A stretch of 64,000 nucleotides of DNA from Pseudomonadota bacterium (GTDB lineage Bacteria; Desulfobacterota; Desulfobacteria; Desulfobacterales; JAHIVH01), in contig JAHIVH010000129.1 of NCBI GenBank assembly GCA_018816735.1, positions 138,628-202,627 on the forward strand, read 5' to 3'. Positions 38,042-55,338 of this stretch are shown here, piece by piece (the first letter of the stretch is position 1; every line of letters begins with the position of its first letter). The notes beneath the pieces were generated by a model. The model was not told the DNA's origin. It did not search any database and was given only the letters and a program-made list of their open reading frames with translations. A program made the position numbers and the translations under genes.

Positions 38042-38677
38042 ATGTTTTCATTATTTCAAAGCGGCGGTTCATTCATGTATGTGATTTTATGCGTCTCTAT
38101 TATTGCGCTGGCCCTTTTTGCAGAAAGAGCCACCTTTCTCTACTTCAAAATGAAAATGAATATTGAGGGCCCGTTTCAGAAAATAGTGAATGCTTTGGAG
38201 AAAATGAACTACAGGGGCGCCATTGAGGAATGCACCCGAATCGAGTCGCATCCCATGGGCAGAATCCTGAAGGCAGGTCTTTTAAAGGCCGATAAACGGG
38301 ACAAGGATATCGAGCGGGTACTGGAAGAGAAGATTTTACAGGAAATTCCTTTAGTCAAGGCACGAATCAATCTTCTGACCATGTTCGCCAATATCTCAAC
38401 TCTTCTTGGTCTTCTGGGAACCATTATCGGTCTGATCAGTGCATTTCAAGGCGTAAGCAGTGCCAATGCCGCCATGAAACAGGAAATCCTCGCTAACGGT
38501 ATTTCCGTGGCCATGCTGACCACGGCATTTGGTCTTATTGTGGCCATCCCCTGCCTGGCAGGTTATTATATACTGAATAACCGGGGTGAATATCTTATCG
38601 ATCAGTTCGAGGAAAAAGCATTGTCCCTATTTAACACATTGTCCTCCATAAAAAGAGATAAGGAAGCATCATGCTAG
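38042..38677 (+). CDS. MotA/TolQ/ExbB-family proton channel (AglR-like by context)
   Basis: Three-TM layout with the conserved C-terminal half (LGLLGTIIGLISAF, NGISVAMLTTAFGLIVAIP). Confidence 0.85.
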   Translation: MFSLFQSGGSFMYVILCVSIIALALFAERATFLYFKMKMNIEGPFQKIVNALEKMNYRGAIEECTRIESHPMGRILKAGLLKADKRDKDIERVLEEKILQEIPLVKARINLLTMFANISTLLGLLGTIIGLISAFQGVSSANAAMKQEILANGISVAMLTTAFGLIVAIPCLAGYYILNNRGEYLIDQFEEKALSLFNTLSSIKRDKEASC

Positions 38678-39183
38678 GAAGAGGCCGAAAAAGAAGAAAA
38701 AGTGAAGATGACGTGGAACTGGATATGGTCCCCATCATGAATATGTTTCTGGTATTGATCCCGTTTCTATTGATGTCGGCCAGTTTTTTTCACTTAAAAG
38801 CCATCAACACATCTGTTCCTGTTCTTTCAAATGGTGAAAATAATGATGCCATAAAACCGGATGACACAGTCAAGCTCACATTGATCGTTGAAATAAAAAA
38901 GGACGGTATCCACCTTTCGGCATCATCAGACAATGCGGAAGAAAATATTTTGGCAGGTATAGAAAAAACGTTCAGAATTACAGGGAAAAATGATTATCCC
39001 TTTGACGAATTCAGCACCTGTTTGAGGGATATAAAGGCAAGATATCCGAAAAGCGATACGGTGATCATTATTCCGGAGAAGAGTGTGATTTATGAAACCA
39101 TTATTCAAACCATGGATGTGGCACGATACTCAAAGGAAAGCCCCATGTTTCCGAAAGTCGTGTTGTCCGGGAAAGTAGGATAG
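38671..39183 (+). CDS. ExbD/TolR-like protein, a variant with Asn in place of the conserved TM Asp
   Basis: The TM segment LDMVPIMNMFLVLIPFLL aligns with PLIDIVF of the canonical ExbD in this window. The Asn codon AAT is at 38740-38742. 7-nt overlap with the upstream gene. Confidence 0.75.
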   Translation: MLGRGRKRRKSEDDVELDMVPIMNMFLVLIPFLLMSASFFHLKAINTSVPVLSNGENNDAIKPDDTVKLTLIVEIKKDGIHLSASSDNAEENILAGIEKTFRITGKNDYPFDEFSTCLRDIKARYPKSDTVIIIPEKSVIYETIIQTMDVARYSKESPMFPKVVLSGKVG

Positions 39184-39195: not shown

Positions 39196-39681
39196 ATGGC
39201 ACTTGGCAAAAGAAGAAGACAAAAAGGTGCATTTATTCCGCCCAAACTTCAGATTACGTCCATGATGGATATGTTTACCATCATATTGATTTTTCTCCTG
39301 TTTTCATTTTCAGATAAACAGGAAACCCTTTCCCTTGATAATGACCTGCAATTGCCCACATCCAATGCCAAGCTCGATTATAATGATTCGATAAAACTCG
39401 TGCTCACCAAAACACAGCTGCAAATCGATGATAAAGTTGTTGCCAAAATCAGGGATGGTCAGGTTCAGGGGTTGAATCCAAATGATCTCAAGGCATCTGA
39501 GCTTTACAAACAACTGGAATCAAGAAAAAAGAACGATGACAGGACGCGTGAAGATGAAGAAAAGGACACCATTCTGTTTCTTTGCGATAAAAGACTTTCG
39601 TTTGATACGATAAACAGCATTGTAAAAACAGCGGGAATGGCAGGATATCCCAACTTCCAATTTGGCGTATTAAAAAAGTAA
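39196..39681 (+). CDS. ExbD/TolR-like protein (conserved TM Asp retained)
   Basis: LQITSMMDMFTIILIFLLF. 161 aa. Confidence 0.8.
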   Translation: MALGKRRRQKGAFIPPKLQITSMMDMFTIILIFLLFSFSDKQETLSLDNDLQLPTSNAKLDYNDSIKLVLTKTQLQIDDKVVAKIRDGQVQGLNPNDLKASELYKQLESRKKNDDRTREDEEKDTILFLCDKRLSFDTINSIVKTAGMAGYPNFQFGVLKK

Positions 39682-39688: not shown

Positions 39689-40024
39689 ATGATGAAGAAC
39701 ATGACAGTGACAATGAAAAGAATGATTCAGTCAGGCATCCTGTTTATGCTGATGATGGCTGTATGCGTGACAACATCTTATGCTGCTGAAAAACAGCAGC
39801 AAGGCGCGAACCAGCGGCTTGAAAACCGGATAGATTTCGGAAACTCCTATATCCTGGGGCAGAGCATCAAGTCCGGCGCAGTATACCTTTTGCAGCGAAA
39901 AAAGTCTGATATCAACAGCATGCTTCATGTCAGGGAAAATTATCGAAAAGAGATATTGGAAGATTTTACGGTCAATGATTTAAGCATGGACGATAAAAAA
40001 GGGAATTCCAAAAAAGAAAAGTAA
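39689..40024 (+). CDS. Small secreted protein (position analogous to GltF/NfsF)
   Basis: Signal peptide (ILFMLMMAVCVTTSYA/AEK). 111 aa, no recognised motif. Called mainly on tight operon spacing. Confidence 0.5.
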   Translation: MMKNMTVTMKRMIQSGILFMLMMAVCVTTSYAAEKQQQGANQRLENRIDFGNSYILGQSIKSGAVYLLQRKKSDINSMLHVRENYRKEILEDFTVNDLSMDDKKGNSKKEK

Positions 40025-40077
40025 GATTTCCGTCCTTGGAAGGGCAACTTAATTACGAGACGAAAAGGGATAGCACC

Positions 40078-42675
40078 ATGTCAGTAAATGCGTTTAACAT
40101 CAATCAGCAAGACGAATTTAACGATAAAGATGCATCACTTCCGATTCCATCTGGTCGTGAGTCTTCAACCCAGAACCGTTTCGTTGTTCAATTTTTTATT
40201 TTTTATGGCGAAAATTTTCTGGGTTGGGATTGTTTTTACAAAAAGAAAATTGTTATTGGAAGTGACGACACAGCGGATCTGATTCTGGTTGGTGAACACA
40301 TCGAACCGATTCATGCGGTTGTCTATTTTAAAGGAGACCAGGTTATTGTCTCCGATAAATCCAGTAACACGGGCCTGGTCGTCAACAATCGTTCTGTCAA
40401 AACGATCATTCTCGGCAATTACGATTATATCGATATTGGCCCCTATACGCTTAAAATCAAGGTCAAGCAAAACCAGAATCCGGTTTCAGAGGCCCTCAAA
40501 ACAGATTCGTCCACTGTAAAACAGGGACATGGCGGAGATTCATCGTCTGTTTCAGAAAAAAGTACCGTAAATAGCCAGGCATCGTCCATCAATACCCAAA
40601 AGCCCAAAAAAGCCATTTATTATCCGTTAAAGAAAAATAGCCCGCTGGAGATTTTACCTGCATCAAACACCGAAAAAATTGTTTCTGAACCAGAAGAAAA
40701 CAAACCGTCGGCAATCGCTGCAAAGAACGAAACATCCTATCGGCTTGTCTGTCAGGGTGAGATCGCCCCTGATAAAGATCCTGTGGAAGTGATCGAAAAC
40801 CTGGCCGTGATGATGAAGAAAGAAAAAGACGAGGTCGAGAAGCTGGTTTCAGGTTCCAGGGTTATTCTTAAAAAAGATATCGATATGGCTGCCGCTGAAA
40901 GACTTCGGAAAACATTTGAGCGATTGGGCCTTATCGTTAATATTGAAAAGACGGGCACCGCAGTTGAGAATCAGGAAATAGCGAAACCGGCGGTCCGGGA
41001 AGAGCAGGTTGAAAGGCCTGTGGAAGAGATCCCCGATCAACAGGAACTATCGAAACCGACACAAGATAATCAGAAAGAAACACAAAAGGAAGAAAAACAA
41101 CCGTCCGTATTTGAGGCTGTACCCCAACCTGAGCCTGAAATGGAAAAAGATCCATTTCAAACCATGTCTTTTCAATACGATGACGACGATGACGATGACG
41201 ACGAACCCGATACAGTCGCGGATTTTTTACTGAGAGAAAGAATTCTTGATTCAGGTATAAAATCATCTTCTTCCAAATCATCCGGTCAACCTCTTGTTGA
41301 AGTCATGAAATACCGTTCAGATACGGTTATGGATATCACTTATTTAAATGTAAATGAAAAATACGTCATTCAACATGGAAAAGACAAATTCTGTCTGGCC
41401 CGCCATCAGAAAAAAAACGGCGGCCTGTTTTATTTTGATGAGGAGATAGAAGGTATCGTTCAGTATGACGCCTCCCAACAGAAAGAAATAAATTCCCTCC
41501 GGTCTGACGACCGCATTCATAAAAAAGGAAAGGGAGTTTACAGGGAATCCCTTCCGAAAAATGGTGTCGTCATTCTGACCGATGATGTGTTTACCTATCA
41601 TATCAGGATGGTAGACGGTATCGAACTTCCGGAGGTTCACATTGCTTCCGGAAAGAGTATCGGCTTTCATAAATTTCTGGCCAAGTCGTCTGTATTCCAT
41701 GTGGTCATGATCCTGCTTCTGTCTCTTATTTACGCACTGAGCCAGAAACCTATAGTAAAACCGCCTGAAACCTATTTCGTCAACATGGATATGGATACGC
41801 TGGCTGAAATAAATAGGGTCTTGAAACCGCCTGTCAAACCTCAACCAGAAGTGATGGATCTGGCAGAAGAGCCCCCAAAAACAGTTGAAAAAAAGCCGGT
41901 TCCCAAACCTGATGCCCCTCAAAAAAATGTGGCAAAAGCACCTGCCAGGCAAATCAGCAAAAAGGGGAAGGGCACTGTTTCAAGATCACCTAAAGCCGGT
42001 GGCGGATTTGGAGATGGCAACGTGGCAAACCGGAATATCAATGAAGCCGGTCTTTTGGGGATTCTGGGAACAGCCATGGATGCCGCCGCTCCCAGTCAGG
42101 CGCTTGCTGCCGTCACCAATCTCGATGCCGTGTCGTCTTCATCATCCCAAAATGCCAATTTCAAGGTGGGTGGAATCGTAGGGAAGCTTGGCACATCCAG
42201 GATCGAGTTGACCTCACCCGGAGATATAGGCGGAGGAACCAAAGGGGATAGACAGGTCTTGAGAAGCTACGGCGCCGGCGGAGAAGGAACCGTTGCGGCC
42301 CTTGAAAAAGGAACAACCGGTCAGAAACAGGTCATGGGTCTTGTCAAGGCCAATCTGACCAAAACAGTTACCATACAGGGCGGGATGAGCAGAGAAGCGG
42401 TAAAACGGGTGATTGACGAACATCTGGACGAAATCAGTTACTGTTATGAAACCGCCCTTATTTCCAATCCGTCGATAATGGGCAGAGTCGTATTTGAATG
42501 GAAAATTCTCGCATCAGGACGTGTCGGTGAAGTGACGATCAAGTCCTCTTCGATCAATTCAAACGAGATTCATTCATGCATTAAATCTTCAATCAAAACC
42601 TGGCAATTTCCCAAACCCACAGGAAGCGAGGTTGTCGTATCATATCCGTTTATTTTCGATATTGTCGGATTCTAA
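40078..42675 (+). CDS. FHA-like / single-TM / Pro-rich / AgmX-PglI-type (TonB_C-like) C-terminal domain protein (GltG/GltJ-like)
   Basis: FHA-like block IVIGSDDTADLILVGEHIEPIHAVVYFKGDQVIVSDKSSNTGLVVNNRSV. Long E/K/P/Q-rich region with the run DDDDDDDDEPD. TM helix FHVVMILLLSLIYAL. Pro-rich spacer. C-terminal GGMSREAVKRVIDEHLDEISYCYETAL...VVVSYPFIFD. ATG 40078 is preferred over the TTG at 40036. Confidence 0.8.
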   Translation: MSVNAFNINQQDEFNDKDASLPIPSGRESSTQNRFVVQFFIFYGENFLGWDCFYKKKIVIGSDDTADLILVGEHIEPIHAVVYFKGDQVIVSDKSSNTGLVVNNRSVKTIILGNYDYIDIGPYTLKIKVKQNQNPVSEALKTDSSTVKQGHGGDSSSVSEKSTVNSQASSINTQKPKKAIYYPLKKNSPLEILPASNTEKIVSEPEENKPSAIAAKNETSYRLVCQGEIAPDKDPVEVIENLAVMMKKEKDEVEKLVSGSRVILKKDIDMAAAERLRKTFERLGLIVNIEKTGTAVENQEIAKPAVREEQVERPVEEIPDQQELSKPTQDNQKETQKEEKQPSVFEAVPQPEPEMEKDPFQTMSFQYDDDDDDDDEPDTVADFLLRERILDSGIKSSSSKSSGQPLVEVMKYRSDTVMDITYLNVNEKYVIQHGKDKFCLARHQKKNGGLFYFDEEIEGIVQYDASQQKEINSLRSDDRIHKKGKGVYRESLPKNGVVILTDDVFTYHIRMVDGIELPEVHIASGKSIGFHKFLAKSSVFHVVMILLLSLIYALSQKPIVKPPETYFVNMDMDTLAEINRVLKPPVKPQPEVMDLAEEPPKTVEKKPVPKPDAPQKNVAKAPARQISKKGKGTVSRSPKAGGGFGDGNVANRNINEAGLLGILGTAMDAAAPSQALAAVTNLDAVSSSSSQNANFKVGGIVGKLGTSRIELTSPGDIGGGTKGDRQVLRSYGAGGEGTVAALEKGTTGQKQVMGLVKANLTKTVTIQGGMSREAVKRVIDEHLDEISYCYETALISNPSIMGRVVFEWKILASGRVGEVTIKSSSINSNEIHSCIKSSIKTWQFPKPTGSEVVVSYPFIFDIVGF

Positions 42676-42688
42676 GGAGCCACTATTT

Positions 42689-43417
42689 ATGAAAAACATT
42701 TTGTCATTTGTCATTGCCATCATGCTTGTTTTTTCCATGACAGGTCCGTTTTTACAGACTGCATCCGGTAAAGAAGCGGAACCGGTTTTGGTCATCCAAA
42801 ACCGGGTGTTTCACAAAAATCATGAACTTTCGCTGTCTTTCGGGTATGTTGCGGATGATGATTTTTTTAATGTATACCCGGTTGGCATCAGTTATACCTT
42901 CAATTTTTCGGATCATATCGCCTGGGAAGTGGCAAGAGCGCAATTCAATCTGACCCGGGAGAAAGATCTGAAAGGCAATCTTGAAAATGAATTCGGCGCC
43001 ACCCCTTCTGAATTCACCGAACCGATTTATTCCATTCATTCCAGTTTTGTTTTAAAACCGTTTTACGGAAAGGAATCGATTTATAACAAGCGCGTCATCA
43101 ACCATGAAACCTATTTCCTTCTGGGCGCGGGTATCGCCAATTTTGAACGGAAAAAAAGCTATGGAGATCCGGACACGGAAAATGCAATCTCCATCGGTGT
43201 GGGTGTTGGCAAGAAGTATTATATCAATAAGCACCTCTGTGTGAATTTTGAACTTCGGGACTATGTCAACCTGAAAGAAGACAATACCCAGAACACCATA
43301 TTCTTTGGCATGAGCCTGGGGTTGCGGTTCAATCTTCTGCCGCGGAAAACAGATAGCGACAAAACCATCGAGACATTGAACGACTACCTGAAAATGGGGG
43401 ATTCAAATGCTTTATAA
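42689..43417 (+). CDS. Outer-membrane beta-barrel protein (GltH/GltK-like position)
   Basis: Signal peptide (MKNILSFVIAIMLVFSMTGPFLQTASG). Alternating hydrophobic beta-strand pattern (HELSLSFGYV, VGISYTFNF, CVNFELRDYV, FFGMSLGLRFNL). The start at ATG 42689 follows GGAG. Confidence 0.6.
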   Translation: MKNILSFVIAIMLVFSMTGPFLQTASGKEAEPVLVIQNRVFHKNHELSLSFGYVADDDFFNVYPVGISYTFNFSDHIAWEVARAQFNLTREKDLKGNLENEFGATPSEFTEPIYSIHSSFVLKPFYGKESIYNKRVINHETYFLLGAGIANFERKKSYGDPDTENAISIGVGVGKKYYINKHLCVNFELRDYVNLKEDNTQNTIFFGMSLGLRFNLLPRKTDSDKTIETLNDYLKMGDSNAL

Positions 43418-44927
43418 CAGGCGTTTAGCGGGTTTCCTGGGGATATTCATTCTGATGCTGTCGGTCTTGGCAGGGCCTTACCAGAGCGACGTGTATGCCG
43501 TTTCTTCCAAAAACGAATCTGATAAGAAAGATCCAAAGGTCCAACCTGTCGTTGCAAATGAATATGATCGCAAGGATTTTGAAAAAGGCTATCATTACTT
43601 TGAAAAGGAAGATTATGAAGCGGCGGCGCCTTATTTTTATCGGTTTGTAAAAAATCATACAGCCGATGATGAAGACTATGAATGGGCGGAATTTTTTCTG
43701 GCCATCTCTCTTGCAAAAACCGGCTTTTCCCATGCATCGGTGGATATCCTTTCTATGCTGGTCACCCGGAAGCCCAATCAGAAAATTGTCACGTATGCCC
43801 TGGAAGTATTTGAAACGATAGTGAGGACAAAACCGTTTGACAGGGAACTGGTGATCAATCAGGCCATATGTGATCAGGATTATGGTTTTGTAGATGGCAG
43901 ACTCTCCAATTTTATTCATTACTATCAGGGCGTCTATGACTGGCAGCATGGATTTTTCGAGTGGGGAGACGGTCATTTCAGGAATATTTCAAAAGAGTCG
44001 TATTACTATTACAAATACCTGTACCAGAAGGCCAAACAGGAACTTCACAATGATAAAATCGATGAGGCTATCGCCACGTTAAAAACCATTATGGTGAGAG
44101 ATGTCAAGGAAACGGATCTGAAGGATGATGTGCGGAAAATGCTGGCAAGACTTCTTTATGAAAAAGAAGATTTCAAGGCAGCCAATCGACTGTATCAGGA
44201 CATTGAACAGAATATTCTGGATCAGTCCCAGAATCTCATGGAACTCGCATGGGTTCAATACAGACAGGGAAATCCGGAAAAAGCCATGGGGCTTTTATAT
44301 GCATTTGAGGCGCCTTCTTTTAAAAACAGTTTTACACCGGAGTACTTCATATTGAAATCGTTTATCTATAAGGATGTCTGCCACTACCAGCGTGCTTTGG
44401 ATGTGGTCGAGGATTTCAGGGCACGCTACGGGGATGCCCTTACCCATATCTATAACAGGAAAGAACCGATCACCAATGAAGCGTTGATACTCGTCCTTTT
44501 AGGTAAAAAACAGATCAACGATACGTTCAAATTCCTGAATCTTTTGACCAGGGAAAAAGAGAAGGTGAAGGGTATCAAGGACAGCGTGTTTCAATTCTAT
44601 ATGAACAGGCTCTATGATCTCAAAATAAGGGAAAGTGCGGAAACGCTAAGAAATCAGATTCAGGAGTCTTACGAAGAAATGGCCAATGAGCTTTTGAAAT
44701 ATGAGGAAGAAGCCTACCTGATGGCATATGAGATCGGTCTTGACATGTATCAGCGGGTTACGGATCACCATTATGCAGGTGAAGAAAACAAGGAACAAAA
44801 ATCTGACAAGGGAATCGTGGTATATCCGTTCCAGGGAGAATTCTGGAATGACGAATTATCAGATTATCATGTGAGTCTGCCGGATAAATGCAACCAAATG
44901 GAAGAATGGGATATCTTTTTCAAATGA
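43407..44927 (+). CDS. Exported TPR-repeat protein (GltE/NfsE-like size and position)
   Basis: Signal peptide, then repeated TPR-like A/Y/L patterns (FEKGYHYFEKEDYEAAAPYFYRF, YEKEDFKAANRLYQDI, YRQGNPEKAMGLL). Overlaps the upstream gene by 11 nt. Confidence 0.7.
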   Translation: MLYNRRLAGFLGIFILMLSVLAGPYQSDVYAVSSKNESDKKDPKVQPVVANEYDRKDFEKGYHYFEKEDYEAAAPYFYRFVKNHTADDEDYEWAEFFLAISLAKTGFSHASVDILSMLVTRKPNQKIVTYALEVFETIVRTKPFDRELVINQAICDQDYGFVDGRLSNFIHYYQGVYDWQHGFFEWGDGHFRNISKESYYYYKYLYQKAKQELHNDKIDEAIATLKTIMVRDVKETDLKDDVRKMLARLLYEKEDFKAANRLYQDIEQNILDQSQNLMELAWVQYRQGNPEKAMGLLYAFEAPSFKNSFTPEYFILKSFIYKDVCHYQRALDVVEDFRARYGDALTHIYNRKEPITNEALILVLLGKKQINDTFKFLNLLTREKEKVKGIKDSVFQFYMNRLYDLKIRESAETLRNQIQESYEEMANELLKYEEEAYLMAYEIGLDMYQRVTDHHYAGEENKEQKSDKGIVVYPFQGEFWNDELSDYHVSLPDKCNQMEEWDIFFK

Positions 44928-47900
44928 AAAAAGGTCATATGTTAAAAAAAATAATCGGTGTATGTCTTTTTGTACTGCTGCTTTCAGAATGGTCGGGTAT
45001 GGTCCTTGCCGCTGTTGATCAGTACGGGTATCAGCAGACGAATCAGGATGAGGAACGGAAAAAATATATCGCCAAACTACTGGAGGACAGACAAAAAGTT
45101 GAAATGGCGATTTTAAACACCCGTTCCCTTATCGATAAATCAAGGAACAGGCCCTATCTGCCGGAGCTTTACTTAAGACTTGCAGAACTCCACATTGAAA
45201 AATCGAGAATCGCTTTCTTTGTAAGAAAAAACCAGAGAGACGGTGAAAGCTCTTCCCTCGATCAGTTTGAATCAAATACCCTGAAAAACAGGGCGCTTGA
45301 GATTTATCAGCGAATTCTGGACGATTTCCCTGATTTTCAGGATCAGGATAAAGTGCATTTTTTCATGGCCCATGAATTCAGGGAGCTCAATAAAACCGAT
45401 GAGATGATCGCCCATTACCGGGAAATTATACGTAAATACCCCAATAGTTCATATGTGCCGGAATCCTATCTTCTTCTGGGAGATTACTTCATGGGCAAAG
45501 GCGATGTGGACATGGCCAAACGTCATTATGAAAAGGTCATCGATTACCCGTTCAGCCAGGCTGTGGTTATTGCACGGTATAAACTGGCCTGGTGTCATAT
45601 CAACAATGCGGATTATAAAAGTGCCATTCATCTGTTCGAAGATGCCGTGAGTCAGTCGGAAAATCTGAAAAATATCGATATTGATACATACAGGCGCGTG
45701 GATGTCAAACAGGAAGCCCTGATCGACATGGCCTATTGTTATACCGAATGTTACAAAGACAGCACCCCTGAAGAGGCACTTACTTACTTCCAGAAATATA
45801 GCTGGTCCAGACAGGTCTATGTGGTCGTTCTCGAAAAGCTTGCCTACAGATATCTTTTAAAGAAAAAATGGCATCATGCAGCCCTGGTTTACAGACAGCT
45901 TTCTATTTTGCAGCAGGATGCAGACAAGCTGCTTGATTATTCGAAAAATATTTTTGAATGCGTCCAGGCCATGGGAAAATTCGATGATGTGGATCAGGAT
46001 ATGGCCATTATCGTAAAAGCGTTGAAAAAACAGAAATACGCTGCTGACGTCACGGATGAAGTCAAAGCGAAAAACGTCAAGGATTATGAGTTGTATGCAA
46101 GAGATCTGGCCACCCACCTGCATCAGAAAGCGAGGAAAGACAAATCCGCAGATGACTTCAGGCGTGCGGCAGACGCTTATAAAACCTATCTCGAATTTTT
46201 TAACGAAAGTCCTGTGAAACAGGAAATGAACGTGAATTATTCAGAAGCACTCTTTTCCTCCAAAGATTACCTTCATGCAGGAAAGCAGTATGAAAAACTC
46301 GCACTTGCATCTGAAAAAGATCCGAAAAACAGAAAAGAAAATTTATACAGTTCGGTCATATCCTATTATACCGCCATTAAAAACAAGGATAACCTGGATT
46401 CATATGAACTGGCATTTGCCAGAGGCGGACTGAAAGAAACAGGGAAATCGTATGCCAAGGAGTTCCCCACGTCCCGCTATGTGGAGGATGTGTTATTCAA
46501 TGTGGCATGGATTTCCTACGATGCCGGCAACTATGACGACGCGATCAAAGATTTTTCAGAATTTGTGAATAAATATCCGGGCGGCAAACCGGCGAGTGCG
46601 GCGGTTCATCTGATTCTGGATGCCTATCATCTGAAGGAGGATCATGAAGGATTGATTGCCTATGGCCGGAAAGTATTGGCCGACAACCGTATAAGGGATT
46701 CGAAACTCAAACAGGATGTGGTCCAGATCGTCAAGGCCACGGAATCCAAAGTGGTATCCAATCTCACCATCGCAGCCATGGATGACTGGGAAAAAGGGAA
46801 ATCCGAGCTGCTGGACCTGGCCGAAGACAGCACGACATCCGGCATGGGTGAGCAGGCGTTGAATGCGCTTATTATTTCCGCAAAAGACAAAGACGATCTT
46901 CAGGCGCTTTTTACCGGCGGCAACACATTCATCAAGAAATATCCGAAGTCGGACAAGCTTGAAAGCACCATGAATGCAATGATCGATTCATCCCTTAAAA
47001 TCAATCAATACAGAATGGTGGCTTCCTACCTGGAATCCTTTGCCGAAAAATTTCCCAAAAACAAGGTGGCACAAGATTTTCTCAATCAGGCTGGTCAGAT
47101 CAGAAAAAATCTGGGCCAGAATGAGCTTTCCAACAGAAATTACATCAGAATCCTGAATACCTATTCTATGAACGACGGTGTTGCCGATGAGGTTGTCTTC
47201 AACATGGCTGATAATTACATCGCGCTCAACAAGGATGACGGGGCCATCAGTGTGATGGAGGGCAACTTAAAGAAGTTGTCGGAAACCGGAAAAGTTAGAG
47301 CAGAAGCCATGATCGCCGGTTTATATCTGAAAAAAGGCCAGGAGAAAAATGCACTGAAGTACAGAAAAATGGCCTATAGCGACTATTCCGGAAAGACGGC
47401 TGGAAAAGATCCTGCCCTTGATGAGGCTTTTGCCGAAATGGCATTTCATGCGGTGCAAAGAAATTACAACGACTACTCAGCCCTTCAGTTGAAAGGGAAA
47501 ATAGACAATACGGTTGTGGCCCGGAAAGCCAAACTTTTGGAGGATCTGGAAAAAGGGTATCAATCCATCATGGGGTACCCGTCTCCGGTATGGGTGCTTT
47601 CAGCCTGTTATTATGCTGCCCGGATCAATCATGAATTCGCCCGTTTCCTGATTGAATCGCCATTGCCTGAACTGTCCGCCGACCAGAAGGAAAACTATCT
47701 TAAGATCATTCAGCAGAAAGCGGATGGTTATTCAAAAAAAGGGGATCAATATCTGGATACGTTCGTCAAACAGGCCAAGAAACTTGAAATTTGTGATTCC
47801 AAAGTGGCAGGGCTTGTTGATTTGTCATCAGGAAAGGTGACCCAAAAAGGTCGTATGCAATCGTTTAACGGCAGCGAAGAACGGGTTTCGGTCGCCCAGA

Positions 47901-48355
47901 ACAGCCTGAAAGATGAGGATACAAAGATCCTTCATGAAAAATTGATGAAACATTCCAATGATGCCGGTCTTCTTTTATCTCTGTCATCTGCGTTCATCAA
48001 CAAGGGAGATTATCGTCTTGGCCTCTTAATCGCCCAGAATGCCCTGTCCGGGATAAAAACCGGAAAGAGTGAGGTCAAGGCAGATTTGTACAATAATATT
48101 GGCGTGGCTTATCTCTTCATGGGGCAGGACGAGCTTGCAAAAGACGCATTTAAATCATCATTGGAAAATTCCGGAAAAAATATCGGCGCCCAGGTGAATC
48201 TGGCAGGCCTTTATTCGTATTATGGACATGAAAGACGTGCCTATTCGATCTATGACACACTTCCGGGTACAAAGCTGATCGAAGAAACCGGTCAGATCAT
48301 TCACCCAAAAGCAAAAGAACTCTACATGGCCCAGCGTGGCGGGAAAAGGAAATAA
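44924..48355 (+). CDS. Large exported TPR-repeat protein (GltD/NfsD-like size and position)
   Basis: Signal peptide (LKKIIGVCLFVLLLSEWSGMVLA), then more than 15 TPR-like units (for example LLGDYFMGKGDVDMAKRHYEKVI, KLAWCHINNADYKSAIHLFEDAV, NIGVAYLFMGQDELAKDAFKSSL). ATGA start/stop overlap at 44924. Confidence 0.75.
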   Translation: MKKGHMLKKIIGVCLFVLLLSEWSGMVLAAVDQYGYQQTNQDEERKKYIAKLLEDRQKVEMAILNTRSLIDKSRNRPYLPELYLRLAELHIEKSRIAFFVRKNQRDGESSSLDQFESNTLKNRALEIYQRILDDFPDFQDQDKVHFFMAHEFRELNKTDEMIAHYREIIRKYPNSSYVPESYLLLGDYFMGKGDVDMAKRHYEKVIDYPFSQAVVIARYKLAWCHINNADYKSAIHLFEDAVSQSENLKNIDIDTYRRVDVKQEALIDMAYCYTECYKDSTPEEALTYFQKYSWSRQVYVVVLEKLAYRYLLKKKWHHAALVYRQLSILQQDADKLLDYSKNIFECVQAMGKFDDVDQDMAIIVKALKKQKYAADVTDEVKAKNVKDYELYARDLATHLHQKARKDKSADDFRRAADAYKTYLEFFNESPVKQEMNVNYSEALFSSKDYLHAGKQYEKLALASEKDPKNRKENLYSSVISYYTAIKNKDNLDSYELAFARGGLKETGKSYAKEFPTSRYVEDVLFNVAWISYDAGNYDDAIKDFSEFVNKYPGGKPASAAVHLILDAYHLKEDHEGLIAYGRKVLADNRIRDSKLKQDVVQIVKATESKVVSNLTIAAMDDWEKGKSELLDLAEDSTTSGMGEQALNALIISAKDKDDLQALFTGGNTFIKKYPKSDKLESTMNAMIDSSLKINQYRMVASYLESFAEKFPKNKVAQDFLNQAGQIRKNLGQNELSNRNYIRILNTYSMNDGVADEVVFNMADNYIALNKDDGAISVMEGNLKKLSETGKVRAEAMIAGLYLKKGQEKNALKYRKMAYSDYSGKTAGKDPALDEAFAEMAFHAVQRNYNDYSALQLKGKIDNTVVARKAKLLEDLEKGYQSIMGYPSPVWVLSACYYAARINHEFARFLIESPLPELSADQKENYLKIIQQKADGYSKKGDQYLDTFVKQAKKLEICDSKVAGLVDLSSGKVTQKGRMQSFNGSEERVSVAQNSLKDEDTKILHEKLMKHSNDAGLLLSLSSAFINKGDYRLGLLIAQNALSGIKTGKSEVKADLYNNIGVAYLFMGQDELAKDAFKSSLENSGKNIGAQVNLAGLYSYYGHERRAYSIYDTLPGTKLIEETGQIIHPKAKELYMAQRGGKRK

Positions 48356-48358
48356 ACC

Positions 48359-49699
48359 ATGTTCTTTATGAAACATATTTTAATCGGTTTTGTCATTTTC
48401 TTCATCGGGTGTGGTGGCGGCGGTTCCGGTAACAGCGGTGATGACAGCTCAAACAATGACAATGACACAACCTCACAGGAATGGGTCTGGGAGAAAGCAA
48501 AGATCACAGAAATAGACGGTGGCGGCATGCTGACACCTAACATCATTGCATCCAAAGGAAATGCCCATGATGTGCACATTGTCTATTTTGAAGATGATAC
48601 GGCAAATGGATATGCCATAAATCACCTGATCGTAGATGACAGCGCGTTTACAGTATCTGCCGAAGATAAAATTCTCTCGGTTGACAATTGCAGAACATTG
48701 GGCGTTTCAGGTGCTGCATCAGGCACGCCTGTTGTGGCTTATCAGGGGGGTGAAATAAGGGAATGCGGTTCCGAACAGCAGTCTGATGCCATGATAAGCA
48801 TTTGGAGTGGCAACGCCTGGACCGAATATACAGCAGGAATCGGATATGTGGAAAGAAATCCCGTGTTTCAGGATGGCCTGGCCGGGAAAACCGTGGCAAC
48901 AGCCATGGATTCGAAAGGAGATATCCATGTCTGCTATCAGTTCTTTTATGAAGGATGCGATGCCATGAATTTTAATTTTCCGGACCTCCTTTATGTAAAA
49001 AAAGATGGCGCGAATCTTTCCGCAGCGAGTGCTGAAGAAGTCGTTACCGGAAATGTCTATAATCCCAACGGTACGGCAAGCGAGCAGAACAGAATCGGGG
49101 ATCGGGTGGCTATCATGGTGGATGAAAACGACGCGCCTGTTATTTTTTACGATGCCGATCTTTCACCTGTCATGCCGGACCCGGATGAGAAAGGGCTTCG
49201 GGTGTCACGAAAAACAGGGGACCGTTTTGAGCATGCCTGGATCGAAACCGGCATTAAGGTCGCCTATTTGAGCTGTGCCATGGATAAGGACGGAAACCCT
49301 GCGGTGGCCTACTATATAGAAGATGAATATGAAGATACAACCGGAACTCACGAGAAATGTCTGAAATTCGCCATATTGAAAAATGACCAATGGACGGTTC
49401 AGATGGTGGATGAAAGCGTTCTCTGCGGCAATTACTGCTCGCTATCCTTTGATCAGAATGGAAATCCATGGATTGCCTATTATGCGGAAGGCAATCACAG
49501 CGGCAGTATTTCCATGAAGGATCTGAAAGTCGCGTATGATGATGGTACGGCCTGGAAGAAAGAAGTTGTTTCAGAAACAGGAGATATCGGCAGTTTCAAT
49601 ACCCTGTGGTTTGATACGGATAATATGGCACGGATTTGTTCCTATGAAAAAGTCGGGAAGGCAATTTATATGTTTGTTCAGCGTGAAGGAGGACAGTGA
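48359..49699 (+). CDS. Lipoprotein with seven internal D-x-x-G-x-P-x-[IV]-A-Y-type repeats (probable 7-bladed beta-propeller)
   Basis: Lipobox FFIGC followed by GGGGSGNSGDD. Repeats: KGNAHDVHIVYFED, ASGTPVVAYQGG, DSKGDIHVCYQF, DENDAPVIFYDA, DKDGNPAVAYYIED, DQNGNPWIAYYAEG, DTDNMARICSYE. Confidence 0.65.
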   Translation: MFFMKHILIGFVIFFIGCGGGGSGNSGDDSSNNDNDTTSQEWVWEKAKITEIDGGGMLTPNIIASKGNAHDVHIVYFEDDTANGYAINHLIVDDSAFTVSAEDKILSVDNCRTLGVSGAASGTPVVAYQGGEIRECGSEQQSDAMISIWSGNAWTEYTAGIGYVERNPVFQDGLAGKTVATAMDSKGDIHVCYQFFYEGCDAMNFNFPDLLYVKKDGANLSAASAEEVVTGNVYNPNGTASEQNRIGDRVAIMVDENDAPVIFYDADLSPVMPDPDEKGLRVSRKTGDRFEHAWIETGIKVAYLSCAMDKDGNPAVAYYIEDEYEDTTGTHEKCLKFAILKNDQWTVQMVDESVLCGNYCSLSFDQNGNPWIAYYAEGNHSGSISMKDLKVAYDDGTAWKKEVVSETGDIGSFNTLWFDTDNMARICSYEKVGKAIYMFVQREGGQ

Positions 49700-50493
49700 T
49701 GAAAACAGTTAGATTATTAATAACAGGTATACTTTCGTTTTTGCTGTTCAATATCCATGCAACAGCGGATATCGATCCCAATGCATGGTTTGACGAATGC
49801 CCGGACGCCAATTGCGGTGCACCGCCTGCAGGTGGTGTGGGCGGTGGTGGCGCAGGGGGCGGTCCCATTGTCGTCAGTTATGATTTGGGACCGTTATGGT
49901 CCCTTGAGGAAGATGCAGACGCAGATGGTGTACTGGATACCCGGGATAATTGTCCCTATCTTGAAAACGACCAGGAAAACTATGATGGGGATGACTACGG
50001 GGATGCCTGCGATAACTGTCCGGCGGTTGTCAATAATGATCAGGAGGACACGGACGGTGATGGCACGGGCGATGCCTGCGATGGCGATATAGATGGGGAC
50101 GGCCTTTCAAACAGCCAGGATAACTGTTCTCTTGTATCAAATCCCCTTCAGACAGATACGGACGGCGATGGCATAGGGGACCTTTGTGACGACGATGATG
50201 ATAATGACGGCATCCCGGATACAGTGGATAACTGCAGCAAGGAACCGAATCTTGATCAGGCGAATGCGGATTTTTATATGACAGGCGATACCCTGGGCGA
50301 TGCCTGTGACGACGACTGGGATAATGACGGGTTTACAGATGATGTCGATCTCTGTCCACGGTCACATTCGGATCTGAATTCAGATACAGATGGCGACGGC
50401 ATAGGAGATGTGTGTGATAATTGTCCGAGGATTTCAAATTCGGATCAGGCGGATTCAGACCAGGACGGAAAAGGAGATGCTTGTGATGGCTAA
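49696..50493 (+). CDS. Secreted thrombospondin type-3 (TSP3) calcium-binding repeat protein
   Basis: Signal peptide and a Gly run (GGVGGGGAGGG), then about ten DxDxDGxxDxCD(N)CP loops (for example DTDGDGTGDACD, DTDGDGIGDLCD, DSDQDGKGDACD). The start overlaps the upstream stop. Confidence 0.8.
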   Translation: MMKTVRLLITGILSFLLFNIHATADIDPNAWFDECPDANCGAPPAGGVGGGGAGGGPIVVSYDLGPLWSLEEDADADGVLDTRDNCPYLENDQENYDGDDYGDACDNCPAVVNNDQEDTDGDGTGDACDGDIDGDGLSNSQDNCSLVSNPLQTDTDGDGIGDLCDDDDDNDGIPDTVDNCSKEPNLDQANADFYMTGDTLGDACDDDWDNDGFTDDVDLCPRSHSDLNSDTDGDGIGDVCDNCPRISNSDQADSDQDGKGDACDG

Positions 50494-52087
50494 GGGTAAG
50501 AACACCTATCTTATGATTTTTTTATCGTTCCTGTTGATGGTTGGCTGCACCAGCAGTCCGCCTCTTGAACGGACCCAGGAAAGACGGCAGGTGACGCTGT
50601 CCGGCTCGTTTCTGACCGAAAGCCCGGATGAAATCAATTTTCCGGTCAAAGTCCTTTTTGCCATCGACTGCTCGTTAAGCATGGGCGATGAAGAAGTCGG
50701 CGTTGTGGCCGGTTCGGATCCCTATTTTTTAAGAATCGAAGCGGTCAGAAATTTTATCAATGAATACAACAGCAATGAAAACACGTCCTTTGAAGTGATG
50801 CTGTGGAGCAATACGGTGTTTGAAACCACCCATGGATTTACCAAAGACCCGGCTGTTCTCGATAATATCCTTACGGATGTTCAAAATGATACAACCACGG
50901 ACTACCTGGGAACCCTTGATGAAATGTTTGTGGATATCCGAAACGATATTCTGGATTCAAATGAAGAGAACCGTGTCAGATCAAAATACGTCGTGGTGTT
51001 TCTGAGCGACGGTGTATCAAACGCCCAGGGCATGATTCAGGATGACGCCGATATCTGGAACAGCGTGGAAGATATCAATGACATGGTTGCGGAATATGGT
51101 GTGGGGTCGTTTAATTTTCATACATTCCTCCTCCTTGGAAATTTCGGAGCAGATGCAAGCGGTCAGGCTGCACTGGCCCATGCGGAAAATACCCTTCAGG
51201 GCATGGCAGAAAGGGGAGATGGCCAGTTCAGACTGTTTGAAAATGCGGAAGCAATTGATTTTATCAATATTGTGGATATGCGGCTTACCGTGGAATACGA
51301 TGTTAAATTTATGGTGGCCTATAATTTCAATGTGCGCCCGGGAATCGATCTGATCTACGTGGACAGCGATGGGGATGGCCTTTCAGATGAAGAAGAAGAA
51401 ATGTATGGCACGGATCCGACCCTTAAAGATTCGGATGCTGACGGGTTTTCGGACTTTTTTGAAATCAAGCTAAGCTCACCCGGACATGTTCTTGATCCCC
51501 TTGACCCGGCTGACAGCAATTGCGATGCAGGCGTCACAGGAATCGATTCGGACAGTGATGGATTGTCGGACTGCGAGGAGTATGTCAAGGGCACAAACAG
51601 GCTCAATCCGGACTCGGATTCCGATGGCATCCCTGATGGCATCGAGTTTCTGACAGGAACCAATCCCCTGGAGGAACAGCAGGCAGTGGATACCGATTTT
51701 GATGGTCTGCTCGATTGGCTAGAAGTTCAGCGGCATTCCAATGTCTCCTCCAATGATGAGATCATCCGGGAACGGTACAGCTATAACTACGACATCAGGG
51801 ATGGTGGACTGGTGGAGATTGATCAGGGAACGGAAATGGCGTCTTTCGTACGTCAGTATGAATTTGATATCTCAAACATCGATGTCATGGAAACACTCGG
51901 GTATACAATGGCAAATGGTGAAGCGTGGCTTGAAGGTGATAATTTGATCCGCTTTTATCTGGCGGAAGTACCGGAAGATACGCCTGACCATGCACCGGTT
52001 TTCAGAGTGGCGGAAGTGATTGTAAACATCAATGATGATGATAAGCATATTGTGTTGTCGCCTGCGGATTTCAAACTTATACAATAG
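50486..52087 (+). CDS. Lipoprotein with a VWA-like domain (DxSxS MIDAS) followed by TSP3 repeats (CglD-like architecture)
   Basis: Lipobox LLMVGC. VLFAIDCSLSMGDEE (DxSxS) and VVVFLSDGVSN. Five TSP3-type loops (DSDGDGLSDEEE, DSDADGFSD, DSDSDGLSD, DSDSDGIPD, DTDFDGLLD). ATG 50486 lies 10 nt after AAGGAG and overlaps the upstream gene by 8 nt. Confidence 0.75.
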   Translation: MAKGKNTYLMIFLSFLLMVGCTSSPPLERTQERRQVTLSGSFLTESPDEINFPVKVLFAIDCSLSMGDEEVGVVAGSDPYFLRIEAVRNFINEYNSNENTSFEVMLWSNTVFETTHGFTKDPAVLDNILTDVQNDTTTDYLGTLDEMFVDIRNDILDSNEENRVRSKYVVVFLSDGVSNAQGMIQDDADIWNSVEDINDMVAEYGVGSFNFHTFLLLGNFGADASGQAALAHAENTLQGMAERGDGQFRLFENAEAIDFINIVDMRLTVEYDVKFMVAYNFNVRPGIDLIYVDSDGDGLSDEEEEMYGTDPTLKDSDADGFSDFFEIKLSSPGHVLDPLDPADSNCDAGVTGIDSDSDGLSDCEEYVKGTNRLNPDSDSDGIPDGIEFLTGTNPLEEQQAVDTDFDGLLDWLEVQRHSNVSSNDEIIRERYSYNYDIRDGGLVEIDQGTEMASFVRQYEFDISNIDVMETLGYTMANGEAWLEGDNLIRFYLAEVPEDTPDHAPVFRVAEVIVNINDDDKHIVLSPADFKLIQ

Positions 52088-52128: not shown

Positions 52129-54396
52129 ATGAAAAAAATACACTATCTAATTCCGGTATTCATGTTGCTGTTGGCTTCATGCGGCGGCCTGGGCAGTTCG
52201 TCTGATGATTCGGATACGGCGGAATTGTCTTTGAACAAGAAAGTCAAGGGAACGATTTCAAAAGAAGGGGAAGTGGACTGGTACCGCTTTCGGGCGGTTG
52301 ACGCCAATGCACTTCTGCAGGTCAAGTGCACCAGTGAAACCTTAAGGCCGGAAGTCGATCTTTTGGTGGGCGTATATCAGGAAGACACCAATGGAAACAA
52401 GGTGCTCATATATGCCGATCACGCGCCGGACGGAGGCATGTCCCCGGCTGACCTTACCCTTCATGCCTATATTGATGTTCCCAAGGATATTTATATCTCC
52501 GTCCGGGATCTGATGGATGATGATTTCTCGGATAATCCCTATTATATTTCCGTTGATATGGAAGCTTCTGCCGAGGAAAATGACAGTTTTACAACAGCAA
52601 CCACCCTGGCCGTGGATGACGGTATGGGGGCCTCGGACAACATCGGCCGAGTGGGGGATATCGACTGCTACCAGTTTACATCAACTGGCGGTGTTTATGA
52701 TGTCAACGTGGAATTCACCCCATTTGCAGGCACGAGTGTCCAGTTGTCCGTAGATTTATATGACAGCGAAGGAAATATCGTGGGTTCCCAGACCAGCGCC
52801 ACCAGGAAAAGCTATCATCTGATTCACTTTCTTCCTGCCGGCCTGTATTTCGTTCATATCGATGACTATGGCATGAATGATTTTGACACGGCATCCACCT
52901 ATACGGTTTTCGTAAATACCGTAACTGCCGATGAAGCAAATGAGAATGATTCCTCATCTCAGGCGGAAACCGTGAATATGTCTTCCTGGAATACGGATGT
53001 GACGATCACAGGTACCATCGCCTATGCGGAAGACAAGGATTACTACCTGCTTTCACTTCCATCACCCCTTGACGGTTTCAGGGTGCTTGAACTGAGTTTT
53101 TTTGCGGCATCATCGTTTGAATACAACATCCATCTGTTGGATCAAAACCTGAATACTGTATTTTCCCAGACATATAAAGGGGGATCAACCCTTTTCCATA
53201 CCCTATTGAAACTGGAATCCGGCAACGCATATCTGGTTATAGAGCCTGTGACCGGCACAACCGGTTTTGAATCGTCTTCTTATACGGCCACCCTTCAGGT
53301 ACAGAATATCGTGGATGATGCAGACACGACGCCAAATGAAAACGATACGATTGATACGGCAGATACGCTGACGCCTTCAAGCAATCCGGCATCTGCCACA
53401 TCCGGAAAAATTTCCTACAGAGGTGATGCAGACTGGTATTCATTAACCATTGCCGCTCATGCCTCGCCGCAGATTCTGGAAGTGTTTGTAAACGCCCCCT
53501 TATCTTCAGTGGCTTACGCCTTAACCGTTATCGGCGATTCTGTGAATGAAAAAATATACAACAGTCATCCGGAAACCATCCCCACGCAACTGAAAACATC
53601 ATTCCTGGTGTCTGCCAATGATGAATCAGCTGTGTATTCTTTCCGCGTGGGCGATTTTCAGGATGATGACGGCGATGATGCAGCTTATACCATCCGTGTT
53701 GATTTGAAGGATATTCCCCCCACGCTGCCAGCGGTGGCGCAAACAGCATCCCCATATGGCGCAACCGTCGCCTATTATAATGAAGTAAATGATACTGGCG
53801 GAAACGAAGTTACCCTTGAATACAATCCGGTTACGAAGAAAACCTTTAATGCCGATACCACCCGCCTTGATTTTGCCAATGCAACAGTGGAACAGAACAC
53901 GCCTGCAGATGGTCAAACCCGACTCACATTCCCATGGATCGGCGGCTATATCGATTATCAGGGAGATCAGGACTGGTTCATGATCGATTTCCAGCCGCTT
54001 GACAGCTCAAGCACCTGGTATTACGAACTGTCAGTGGAATTTTATGCGCCTTCGACGGATGTGGAATATGTGTGGAAATTCTATCCGGACAGAAACGACA
54101 ATGATGTGATGGCCGAGCAGTCAAGCGGTTATGACGGATTTATCGCAAGTGCAGGTGACACGGGTATTTCAGAGGCCGCCTTTGATATCACCACGCCCGC
54201 ACAGGGCGACAGCGATTTCTGGGTGGGCCGCTCATGGCAGGGCCAGGCCTTTTTCAGCATCAGTGATTTCAACTATCTCTATGACGAAACAGAGGCGGAC
54301 AACACCGTTCCAGACGACGACTGGGGCGGATACGGCCAGGCGCCATATTATTTCAGATTAACCCTTATCTATCATCCAGGCGTTTCAAACCCCTGA
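52129..54396 (+). CDS. Lipoprotein with five PPC-like (pre-peptidase C-terminal type) modules
   Basis: Lipobox LLLASC. Recurrent G-x-I-x(3-4)-D-x-D-W/Y-Y motif: GTISKEGEVDWYRF, GRVGDIDCYQF, GTIAYAEDKDYYLL, GKISYRGDADWYSL, GGYIDYQGDQDWFMI. Confidence 0.65.
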   Translation: MKKIHYLIPVFMLLLASCGGLGSSSDDSDTAELSLNKKVKGTISKEGEVDWYRFRAVDANALLQVKCTSETLRPEVDLLVGVYQEDTNGNKVLIYADHAPDGGMSPADLTLHAYIDVPKDIYISVRDLMDDDFSDNPYYISVDMEASAEENDSFTTATTLAVDDGMGASDNIGRVGDIDCYQFTSTGGVYDVNVEFTPFAGTSVQLSVDLYDSEGNIVGSQTSATRKSYHLIHFLPAGLYFVHIDDYGMNDFDTASTYTVFVNTVTADEANENDSSSQAETVNMSSWNTDVTITGTIAYAEDKDYYLLSLPSPLDGFRVLELSFFAASSFEYNIHLLDQNLNTVFSQTYKGGSTLFHTLLKLESGNAYLVIEPVTGTTGFESSSYTATLQVQNIVDDADTTPNENDTIDTADTLTPSSNPASATSGKISYRGDADWYSLTIAAHASPQILEVFVNAPLSSVAYALTVIGDSVNEKIYNSHPETIPTQLKTSFLVSANDESAVYSFRVGDFQDDDGDDAAYTIRVDLKDIPPTLPAVAQTASPYGATVAYYNEVNDTGGNEVTLEYNPVTKKTFNADTTRLDFANATVEQNTPADGQTRLTFPWIGGYIDYQGDQDWFMIDFQPLDSSSTWYYELSVEFYAPSTDVEYVWKFYPDRNDNDVMAEQSSGYDGFIASAGDTGISEAAFDITTPAQGDSDFWVGRSWQGQAFFSISDFNYLYDETEADNTVPDDDWGGYGQAPYYFRLTLIYHPGVSNP

Positions 54397-55297: not shown

Positions 55298-55338
55298 ATA
55301 AAAAAGGCAGAGCAAAATACAGCTCTGCCTTTTTTTTG
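55298..55338. terminator. Bidirectional intrinsic terminator hairpin
   Basis: AAAAAA-GGCAGAGC-8 nt loop-GCTCTGCC-TTTTTTTT, located between convergent genes. Confidence 0.65.

Follow-up and report, generated by a model that had tools for sequence, protein, structure and literature searches.

The 'core complex' encoded by aglRQS and gltCDEG is found in many bacteria, its genes being clustered in Gammaproteobacteria, Geobacter and Fibrobacter together with one unnamed additional gene, and its role outside Myxococcus has been left unexplained (Luciano 2011). The Group A genes, for GltF and the OMP_myx_plus-type β-barrel, were reported only from Myxococcales and Bdellovibrionales (Luciano 2011). 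Here, we describe a Glt/Nfs-like operon of 12 same-strand genes (38042-54396) in a stretch of 64,000 nucleotides from a Desulfobacterales genome (assembly GCA_018816735.1, contig JAHIVH010000129.1, positions 138,628 to 202,627; the window). [quoted passage not shown] The pair is part of a conserved four-gene block in the order β-propeller lipoprotein (Lip446), TSP3 protein, VWA lipoprotein and repeat lipoprotein (Lip755). As judged from sequence comparison, its closest Myxococcus relatives are MtsC and MtsD, and not the gliding proteins CglD and CglB.

For CglB and CglD, a connection with the gliding machinery has been described. In M. xanthus, the GltABHK/GltC platform of the outer membrane holds the VWA lipoprotein CglB (PMC9946355; PMC11761067). 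An earlier note on this DNA had correctly described CglB as a VWA adhesin and CglD as a combination of TSP3/COMP-like (cartilage oligomeric matrix protein) repeats and a VWA domain (PMC9946355; 10.1101/2023.10.19.562135). The cglD gene has reportedly never been encountered in clusters for gliding-apparatus components, and its link with the gliding machinery has been suggested to have arisen late, within Cystobacterineae (10.1101/2023.10.19.562135). Mts is, according to secondary citations and the NCBIfam family names, a cell-cell cohesion locus of Myxococcus, of which MtsC corresponds to MXAN_1334 (PMC12475490).

Relationship of the pair to MtsC/MtsD and to CglD/CglB

Comparison with the NCBIfam models revealed MtsC and MtsD to be the best-scoring named families for the two proteins. 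The gene 1 product matched MtsC (NF047638) with E 1.7e-63 and 215 bits, below the equivalog cut-off of 350, and the aligned part (residues 11-190 to profile positions 8-185) takes in both the repeats and the segment N-terminal to them. The likeness to MtsC thus comprises an N-terminal motif (…ECxxxxCGAP…GG…) and the TSP_3 repeats. In the longer form DECPxxxCGAPPxGG…PIVVSYDLGP, this motif is common to the TSP3 orthologues from outside Myxococcota, and the Myxococcota forms have a related core only (…GECSGGLCG[AT]P…). The gene 2 product matched MtsD (NF047639) with E 3.3e-33 and 114.7 bits, below the equivalog cut-off of 800; the best stretch (residues 227-498 to profile positions 323-592 of 651) is not full-length. 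In common with MtsD, it has a VWA domain, TSP3_bac repeats and a C-terminal domain, and all 26 divergent full-length relatives of gene 2 match the MtsD model as well.

The genomic surroundings agree with this assignment, the TSP3-VWA order and the linkage to Glt paralogs being the same. In M. xanthus, MXAN_1327-1331 are paralogs of GltD, GltC, a β-barrel gene of the G2 cluster (MXAN_2539), GltG and GltF, with MXAN_1329 pairing with a glt gene of the G2 cluster (Luciano 2011, Table S3). MXAN_1334 (MtsC) adjoins MXAN_1327-1331, in agreement with the divergent arrangement of mts and Glt-paralog genes in the Myxococcota loci analysed here. In those with mts-type genes beside a Glt-paralog cluster (L070, L072, L074 and L077), TPR (tetratricopeptide repeat), GltC, OMP (outer-membrane protein), OMP, GltG and GltF genes follow each other on one strand, and TSP3, VWA, VWA and weakly Lip755-like genes continue on the other. 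In the window, too, a TSP3 gene followed by a VWA gene adjoins a Glt-type cluster, and the position of its β-barrel gene is homologous to that of MXAN_1329 in the M. xanthus paralog cluster. The true Myxococcus equivalents, mts, thus adjoin a Glt-type core, in contrast to CglB and CglD, which the earlier note had taken as the equivalents and placed away from the glt core.

One of these loci, from a metagenome-assembled genome (MAG) of Myxococcota (L074), proved informative for gene 2. With 523.8 bits against the cut-off of 350, the product of its TSP3 gene is a bona fide MtsC; the gene after it matches MtsD along its full length, and the third is a second VWA paralog, which is nearer to gene 2 than the MtsD gene (229 vs 152 bits). 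Gene 2 belongs to the family that comprises MtsD and its downstream paralog.

Several features distinguish the window from the Myxococcota loci. The Myxococcota MtsC forms have 433-452 aa and end in a tail of Cys, transmembrane segment and Arg residues (RRRR), whereas the gene 1 product has about 264 aa and is untagged; two tandem VWA genes in Myxococcota contrast with one in the window; and the window pair is overlapping and co-oriented with the operon, whereas the Myxococcota mts genes are divergent from the Glt-paralog cluster. Unlike these loci, the window operon has its own TolQ/ExbD motor and a β-propeller lipoprotein; a homologue of Lip446 was sought in the Myxococcota loci and none was found.

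The earlier note had taken the pair for the equivalent of CglD and CglB, a view under which the operon would be a focal-adhesion machine for gliding that encodes its substratum adhesins in cis. There is indeed a common domain vocabulary. CglD shares with the pair Ca2+-binding TSP3-type repeats, a MIDAS-bearing VWA domain, the lipoprotein nature and the association with a Glt-type motor. CglB is an outer-membrane lipoprotein with a lipobox cysteine about 20 residues in and a VWA domain with a DxSxS…T…D MIDAS, and it is held by a β-barrel/GltC platform; the window operon encodes a GltC-like protein and an OMP_myx_plus-type β-barrel, along with GltG- and GltF-like proteins. Gene 2 also matched the CglD model (NF033765) with E 2.1e-14, but at 52.3 bits against a cut-off of 400 and only within the TSP3 repeats (profile positions 205-326 of 1124), with the VWA part lying outside. 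No family named CglB was listed in NCBIfam at E ≤ 10, the presence of a CglB model in that database being unconfirmed.

Domain order and Cys content differ as well. CglD is a single β-integrin-like protein of 1130 aa and 46 Cys with N-terminal repeats, EGF-like domains and a C-terminal β-I-like VWA domain; in gene 2, the VWA domain is N-terminal, directly after the lipobox, and there are only 4 Cys. CglB has an extra β-jellyroll/propeller domain, 17 Cys, no TSP3 repeats and a gene apart from the glt genes; gene 2 has the lipobox and the MIDAS of CglB, but the added TSP3 repeats and the low Cys number set it apart from the CglB architecture. Gliding is, to our knowledge, undocumented for the carrier lineages Desulfobacterota and Thermodesulfovibrionia. 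MtsC and MtsD score much higher than CglD and are syntenic, M. xanthus MtsC does not belong to the A-motility proteins, and an insertion mutant of MXAN_1327 glides normally (Luciano 2011, Fig. S5). We therefore give the gliding explanation a very small probability.

Linkage of the pair to the core complex across genomes

The surroundings of the pair were compared in 79 loci, one genome per species, which were obtained with the closer homologue set A4 as query, represent the best 80 of 440 relatives and were annotated with the window proteins. Arrangements were counted in those 55 loci whose upstream sequence reached 9 kb or more, core genes being sought within 10 kb. It was found that the core lies within this distance of the pair in 51 of these 55 species-representative loci; the pair is thus not randomly distributed relative to the TolQR/TPR core. 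The order GltG-OMP-GltC-TPR-Lip446-TSP3-VWA-Lip755, as in the window, was present in 44 loci (canonical loci), which span Desulfobacterota, Thermodesulfovibrionia and Gammaproteobacteria, the latter including Alteromonadaceae Bs31, Saccharospirillaceae and Pseudomonadales. In two loci (L066 and L073), the block stands ahead of TolQ-ExbD-ExbD-GltF-GltG-OMP-GltC, so that the core is downstream; in five (L063 and the four Myxococcota loci), the core is divergent; and in the remaining four, no core was found within 10 kb.

Lip446 was found in all 44 canonical loci, and Lip755 follows the VWA gene in 43 of them. In 55 of 68 loci, the end of the TSP3 gene and the beginning of the VWA gene share 8-29 nt. 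The description of the pair in the earlier note, as lying inside the motor operon, therefore holds for the window, where stop and start overlap, and the arrangement recurs in related loci. The closest named relatives are from Desulfobacterales, Desulfomonilia, Desulfocicer and Desulfosudis. We conclude that the linkage between pair and core is strong but not obligatory.

Individual loci showed further variation. The TSP3/VWA pair is on its own in Ca. Magnetomorum (L003, L084), a magnetotactic bacterium that is multicellular, and a homologue of the propeller lipoprotein is encoded elsewhere, beside a small VWA_2 protein; the block is thus dispersed there. In one gammaproteobacterial locus (L055, 10001-13500), the TSP3 gene is followed by a tandem of two VWA paralogs, and in two others (L063 and L067), which have no TSP3 gene, a single VWA gene is oriented divergently to the TolQ…TPR operon. 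The GltF/CglF-like and OMP_myx_plus genes, which in the window (39689-40024 and 42689-43417) belong to a Desulfobacterota operon, occur in gammaproteobacterial loci such as L063 and L067, too. In a MAG labelled Alteraurantiacibacter sp. (L060), the whole cluster is present with most genes split into several open reading frame (ORF) fragments, which suggests a frameshift-rich assembly or decay; the alphaproteobacterial label may reflect mis-binning. The search of the representative library was dominated by giant TSP3-repeat proteins, about 25 of the 150 matches listed being full-length relatives.

Protein architecture and proposed role of the pair

TSP3 units, about ten in number, make up the gene 1 product. 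It matched Pfam TSP_3 (PF02412) with E 2.7e-43 and 145.8 bits (cut-off 25), and a phmmer search of the PDB aligned it with the type-3 wire of eukaryotic thrombospondin-2 (2rhp, E 3e-57) and COMP (3fby, E 1.7e-52). Its composition is 23% Asp with 14 Cys. According to the motif count, C-type units (DxDxDGxGDxCD) number five and N-type units (DxDGxxDxxDxC) four to five, with one further unit that is degenerate; the previous estimate of about ten units was thus right. The window proteins differ from thrombospondin and COMP in being small and separate and in lacking EGF, lectin-like C-terminal and coiled-coil domains. A Sec signal was read from the sequence at the N-terminus (MKTVRLLITGILSFLLFNIHA, followed by TA), and the C-terminus (…GKGDACDG) is the last repeat, with neither an anchor nor a MYXO-CTERM sorting tag. 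The TSP3 gene and its end stand as first described (49696-50493), but the ATG at 49699 is a more likely start than the GTG at 49696: GGAGGA lies six bases upstream (49688-49693), and the overlap with the preceding TGA stop is 1 nt. The public gene call gives 264 aa.

Gene 2 begins with the ATG at 50486, which gives it an 8-nt overlap with the end of gene 1, and AAGGAG is found 9 nt upstream of it; a start at 50408 was rejected, as most aligned homologues begin at 50486 and the overlap with gene 1 would otherwise be 86 nt. The lipoprotein signal (MAKGKNTYLMIFLSFLLMVG, followed by the lipobox cysteine) was likewise read from the sequence, and Cys21 is invariant in 38 close and 23 divergent homologues. 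With N-terminal export signals on both proteins, a cytoplasmic location is not predicted for either. The Pfam score for VWA was marginal (25.5 bits, gathering score 23.8). Modelling with AlphaFold2, from an alignment of 38 homologues, gave a mean predicted local distance difference test (pLDDT) value of 80.5, and the top 50 matches listed by Foldseek against the PDB were all VWA-containing proteins (best E ~1e-7), among them TFIIH p44, complement C2a, Mfa5, ITIH1, LapA vWFA, PilB and GBS104, several of which are pilus-tip or surface adhesins. The structural matches confirm the VWA assignment despite the marginal profile score.

The MIDAS of this domain is of the type found in integrin I-domains and is intact. 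D61, S63, S65, T138 and D175 are invariant across the 38 homologues of 56-100% identity (alignment A1); in the divergent alignment A3, the same holds for D61, S63, S65 and D175 and nearly so for T138, and both MIDAS and lipobox Cys are kept in relatives down to about 30% identity. Five TSP3 repeats follow (Pfam TSP3_bac, 45.9 bits), beginning at residues 293, 315, 354, 376 and 402, with invariant Asp columns. The previous description of gene 2 as a VWA lipoprotein with a DCSLS MIDAS and five TSP3 loops is thereby borne out. The C-terminal β-sandwich is covered by the MtsD profile alignment up to residue 498. Two side results concern the wider VWA family: assignment to a Bat-type VWA/TPR aerotolerance operon was rejected, since a weak PRK13685 match occurred in only 2 of 26 relatives, and a putative fusion of Asp-rich repeats N-terminal to a VWA domain (P0137, 890 aa) showed no convincing MtsC homology and was not used as evidence.

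Taken together, we consider it reasonably probable that genes 1 and 2 specify an envelope adhesion pair of the Mts type within a self-contained Glt/Nfs-like motor operon, and that this pair forms a Ca2+/metal-dependent adhesion module which a TolQR-type motor drives or positions. The location of the pair at the outer membrane or surface, its assembly into a complex, its coupling to the motor and its adhesive function are what we infer by analogy with CglB on the GltABHK/GltC platform and with Mts. The products of the four-gene block would assemble at the outer membrane on a platform of the OMP β-barrel and the GltC-like TPR protein, and this platform would be joined to the proton-driven TolQ/ExbD motor via the large TPR protein and the FHA/TonB-like GltG-type protein. 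The overlapping stop and start codons imply that the products of genes 1 and 2 are probably made in fixed proportion. Ca2+ would stiffen the TSP3 parts, with the gene 1 product forming a disulphide-rich calcium 'wire', and the VWA MIDAS would bind an acidic ligand on a neighbouring cell, in a matrix component or in the Asp-rich TSP3 partner. Positioned, exposed or loaded by the motor, the adhesive module would bring about cohesion between cells or between cell and matrix, as reported for Myxococcus mts, instead of gliding.

The neighbouring lipoprotein Lip446 brings in a second explanation. Its AlphaFold2 model is a β-propeller (pLDDT 87.7; predicted template modelling score, pTM, 0.86), it matched no Pfam family, and its top Foldseek matches were Photorhabdus PLL/PHL lectins, BT3686, sialidases and polysaccharide lyases, including fucose-binding Photorhabdus lectins and glycosidases. 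Given these sugar-binding lectins, glycoside hydrolases and polysaccharide-cleaving enzymes as structural neighbours, the block could be a glycan- or matrix-handling (Nfs-like) module that binds and organises a surface polysaccharide or matrix polymer moved by the motor, with VWA and TSP3 proteins as Ca2+-dependent polymer clamps instead of cell-cell adhesins. Nfs, the sister of Glt, transports a carbohydrate polymer (PMC3858216), transport of the spore-coat polymer by Agl-Nfs being the precedent, and nucleotide-sugar genes are found downstream in the window (57832-60954). Between these genes and the block, however, lie a convergent gene and a terminator-like hairpin; the DUF6901 gene, which was the one downstream gene searched across related loci, was found solely on the contig of the window; and the named homologues of the pair are annotated for cohesion. 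We regard this explanation as rather unlikely, with the qualification that it overlaps with the Mts-type adhesion pair, because adhesion to a matrix polysaccharide is adhesion, too.

A third explanation would keep the pair inside the cell envelope, with the TSP3 and VWA proteins as inner-leaflet or periplasmic Ca2+-dependent spacers or assembly factors without an outside ligand. In OmpA-type proteins, bacterial TSP3 repeats are common in the periplasmic linkers, the default orientation of lipoproteins is towards the periplasm, and the gene 1 product has in this lineage a Sec signal alone, with no anchor or tag. Against this stand the C-terminal tags of Cys, transmembrane segment and basic residues that are carried by relatives in Myxococcota and in L066, L068 and L073; tags of the MYXO-CTERM type sort proteins to the cell surface in Myxococcota (PMC11980579). 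The intact, invariant MIDAS points to ligand binding, and CglB provides the case of a surface-exposed VWA lipoprotein in a Glt machine (PMC9946355). A purely periplasmic role thus appears very unlikely. The tagged proteins of L066, L068 and L073 (Thermodesulfobacteriota and unclassified MAGs; TSP3 genes at about 8746-9900) are themselves MtsC-like, and their Cys, hydrophobic and basic tail is a MYXO-CTERM-like sorting tag outside Myxococcota.

Several points weigh against the Mts-type adhesion pair. Since both proteins fall short of the equivalog cut-offs (215 of 350 bits for MtsC and 114.7 of 800 for MtsD), the function is not simply transferable. The gene 1 product, having neither anchor nor sorting tag, could stay periplasmic, and the surface exposure of the gene 2 lipoprotein is putative. 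A glycan-handling role fits the lectin- and glycosidase-like neighbours of Lip446 as well as adhesion does. On the side of the linkage, pairs without a nearby core occur in Ca. Magnetomorum (L003) and in L038, L068, L080 and L081; the choice of the best 80 of 440 relatives makes the loci lean towards closer relatives; and the overlap count is based on start codons assigned by a simple rule.

Neither the domains nor the Mts names nor the core complex are new; in the library of papers that was searched, no description of the pair or the block as a conserved part of core-complex operons was found. The ancestral link between motor and adhesins proposed in the earlier note is supported by synteny as far as an old link of the motor family is concerned, but it runs via Mts and not via the gliding adhesins. 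The link of integrin-like proteins with Glt-type machines therefore appears to be old, through the Mts lineage, which revises the view of a late, Cystobacterineae-only link in the CglD preprint (10.1101/2023.10.19.562135). It also ties the little-studied mts cohesion locus of Myxococcus to the adjoining Glt-paralog cluster, and a conserved pair in a core-complex operon leads to a concrete hypothesis, namely that a TolQR-type motor powers or positions a cohesion dependent on Ca2+ and MIDAS. Going further, we tentatively put forward, at somewhat less than even chances, that the ancestral Glt/Nfs core complex was a proton-driven adhesion machine whose native outer-membrane cargo was the integrin/thrombospondin-like VWA and TSP3 pair, with Mts as its direct descendant and CglB and CglD as later, unlinked recruits. 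If so, the 'motor plus integrin-like adhesin' logic of bacterial focal adhesions would be older than gliding and widespread among anaerobes that do not glide (Desulfobacterota, Thermodesulfovibrionia) and among marine Gammaproteobacteria.

Operon layout and flanking genes

The features of the operon are listed in Table 1. Clustered TolQ-like, two TolR-like, GltG-like, GltC-like and large TPR genes make up the Glt/Nfs-like core set, and gaps between genes are at most 41 nt throughout 38042-54396, with several genes overlapping. The gene set of the core complex of Luciano 2011 (Group B) is thus present in one cluster, to which GltF-like and OMP_myx_plus β-barrel genes and the four-gene accessory block are added; Lip446 may be the unnamed 'additional gene' of that study.

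Table 1. Positions of the operon genes, of the protein features of the pair and of the hairpin in the window.
Feature	Position	Strand	Evidence or remark
TolQ/ExbB/MotA-family proton channel (AglR-like), operon gene 1	38042..38677	+	Pfam MotA_ExbB 100.1 bits
ExbD/TolR-like protein 1 (AglQ/S-like)	38671..39183	+	Pfam ExbD 52.1 bits
ExbD/TolR-like protein 2	39196..39681	+	Pfam ExbD 42.7 bits
Small exported protein, weakly GltF/CglF-like	39689..40024	+	NCBIfam gliding_CglF E 6.5e-7, 29 bits (below cut-off 90)
FHA, membrane segment and AgmX/PglI (TonB-like) C-terminal domain; GltG/GltJ-like	40036..42675	+	Pfam FHA 37.1 bits
Outer-membrane β-barrel, OMP_myx_plus domain	42689..43417	+	TIGR04565 90.2 bits (cut-off 60); start from public gene call
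GltC-like TPR protein	43407..44927	+	NCBIfam gliding_GltC E 6e-28, 97.9 bits (below cut-off 450)
Large TPR protein, GltD/E-like	44939..48355	+	Matches to numerous Pfam TPR families and, in NCBIfam, to YbgF and BamD-like models
Lip446, β-propeller lipoprotein (446 aa), opens the conserved accessory block	48359..49699	+	FIGC lipobox, AlphaFold2 model
Gene 1, Sec-exported TSP3 Ca2+-binding protein, short MtsC-like form	49699..50493	+	
Gene 1, signal peptide	49699-49767	+	
Gene 1, TSP3 units	49912-50490	+	
Gene 2, lipoprotein with VWA/MIDAS, five TSP3_bac repeats and C-terminal β-sandwich, MtsD-related	50486..52087	+	
Gene 2, lipobox cysteine codon, Cys21	50546..50548	+	
Gene 2, MIDAS DxSxS = DCSLS, D61-C-S63-L-S65 (residues 61-65)	50666..50680	+	
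Gene 2, further MIDAS residues T138; D175	50897-50899; 51008-51010	+	
Gene 2, five bacterial TSP3 repeats (DxDxDGxxDxxE), residues 293-413	51362..51724	+	Pfam TSP3_bac, motif positions
Gene 2, C-terminal β-sandwich, residues 425-533	51758..52084	+	AlphaFold2 strands 434-532
Lip755, lipoprotein (755 aa) with five internal repeats, closes the conserved block	52129..54396	+	LASC lipobox
Hairpin with 14-bp stem, U/A runs on both flanks	55300..55335	.	Consensus scan

The channel protein matched NCBIfam TolQ (E 2.4e-20) under the equivalog cut-off, and the GltG-like protein exceeded the cut-off of myxo_SS_tail (113.3 bits, cut-off 40) but not that of GltG (114.5 bits, cut-off 650). As every individual Glt equivalog cut-off was missed, these operon genes count as homologues of the gliding proteins, but not as their orthologues. 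The small GltF/CglF-like gene occurs at the equivalent position in related loci. Between its FHA domain and its TonB-like C-terminus, the GltG-like protein has a long low-complexity middle, in which eight consecutive Asp (YDDDDDDDDEPD) and stretches rich in Pro and Lys occur. The public call of the large TPR protein has 1138 aa, an alternative ORF start being possible at 44888. In Lip755, the repeat motif G[DE]xD[WYC][YF] occurs at residues 47, 176, 301, 432 and 612, and searches against Pfam and the PDB gave no match; its public gene call starts 11 codons later, with loss of the signal peptide.

Ahead of the TolQ gene, a cobalamin riboswitch (Rfam RF00174, 108 bits) at 36922-37133 on the minus strand forms the 5' limit of the intergenic region; it leads a minus-strand operon starting with a periplasmic-binding-protein-like gene (35902-36873). 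On the 3' side of the block (region 54529-56902), a DUF6901 gene (245 bits) is followed by a convergent DUF7507/CLIPPER_2 repeat protein gene on the minus strand. The hairpin between the two is, by its sequence, likely a bidirectional terminator that closes the region; overall counts in the promoter and terminator consensus scans were no higher than in shuffles. Further on, in the region 56000-58000, the GC content falls to 33.5% ahead of the nucleotide-sugar gene cluster.

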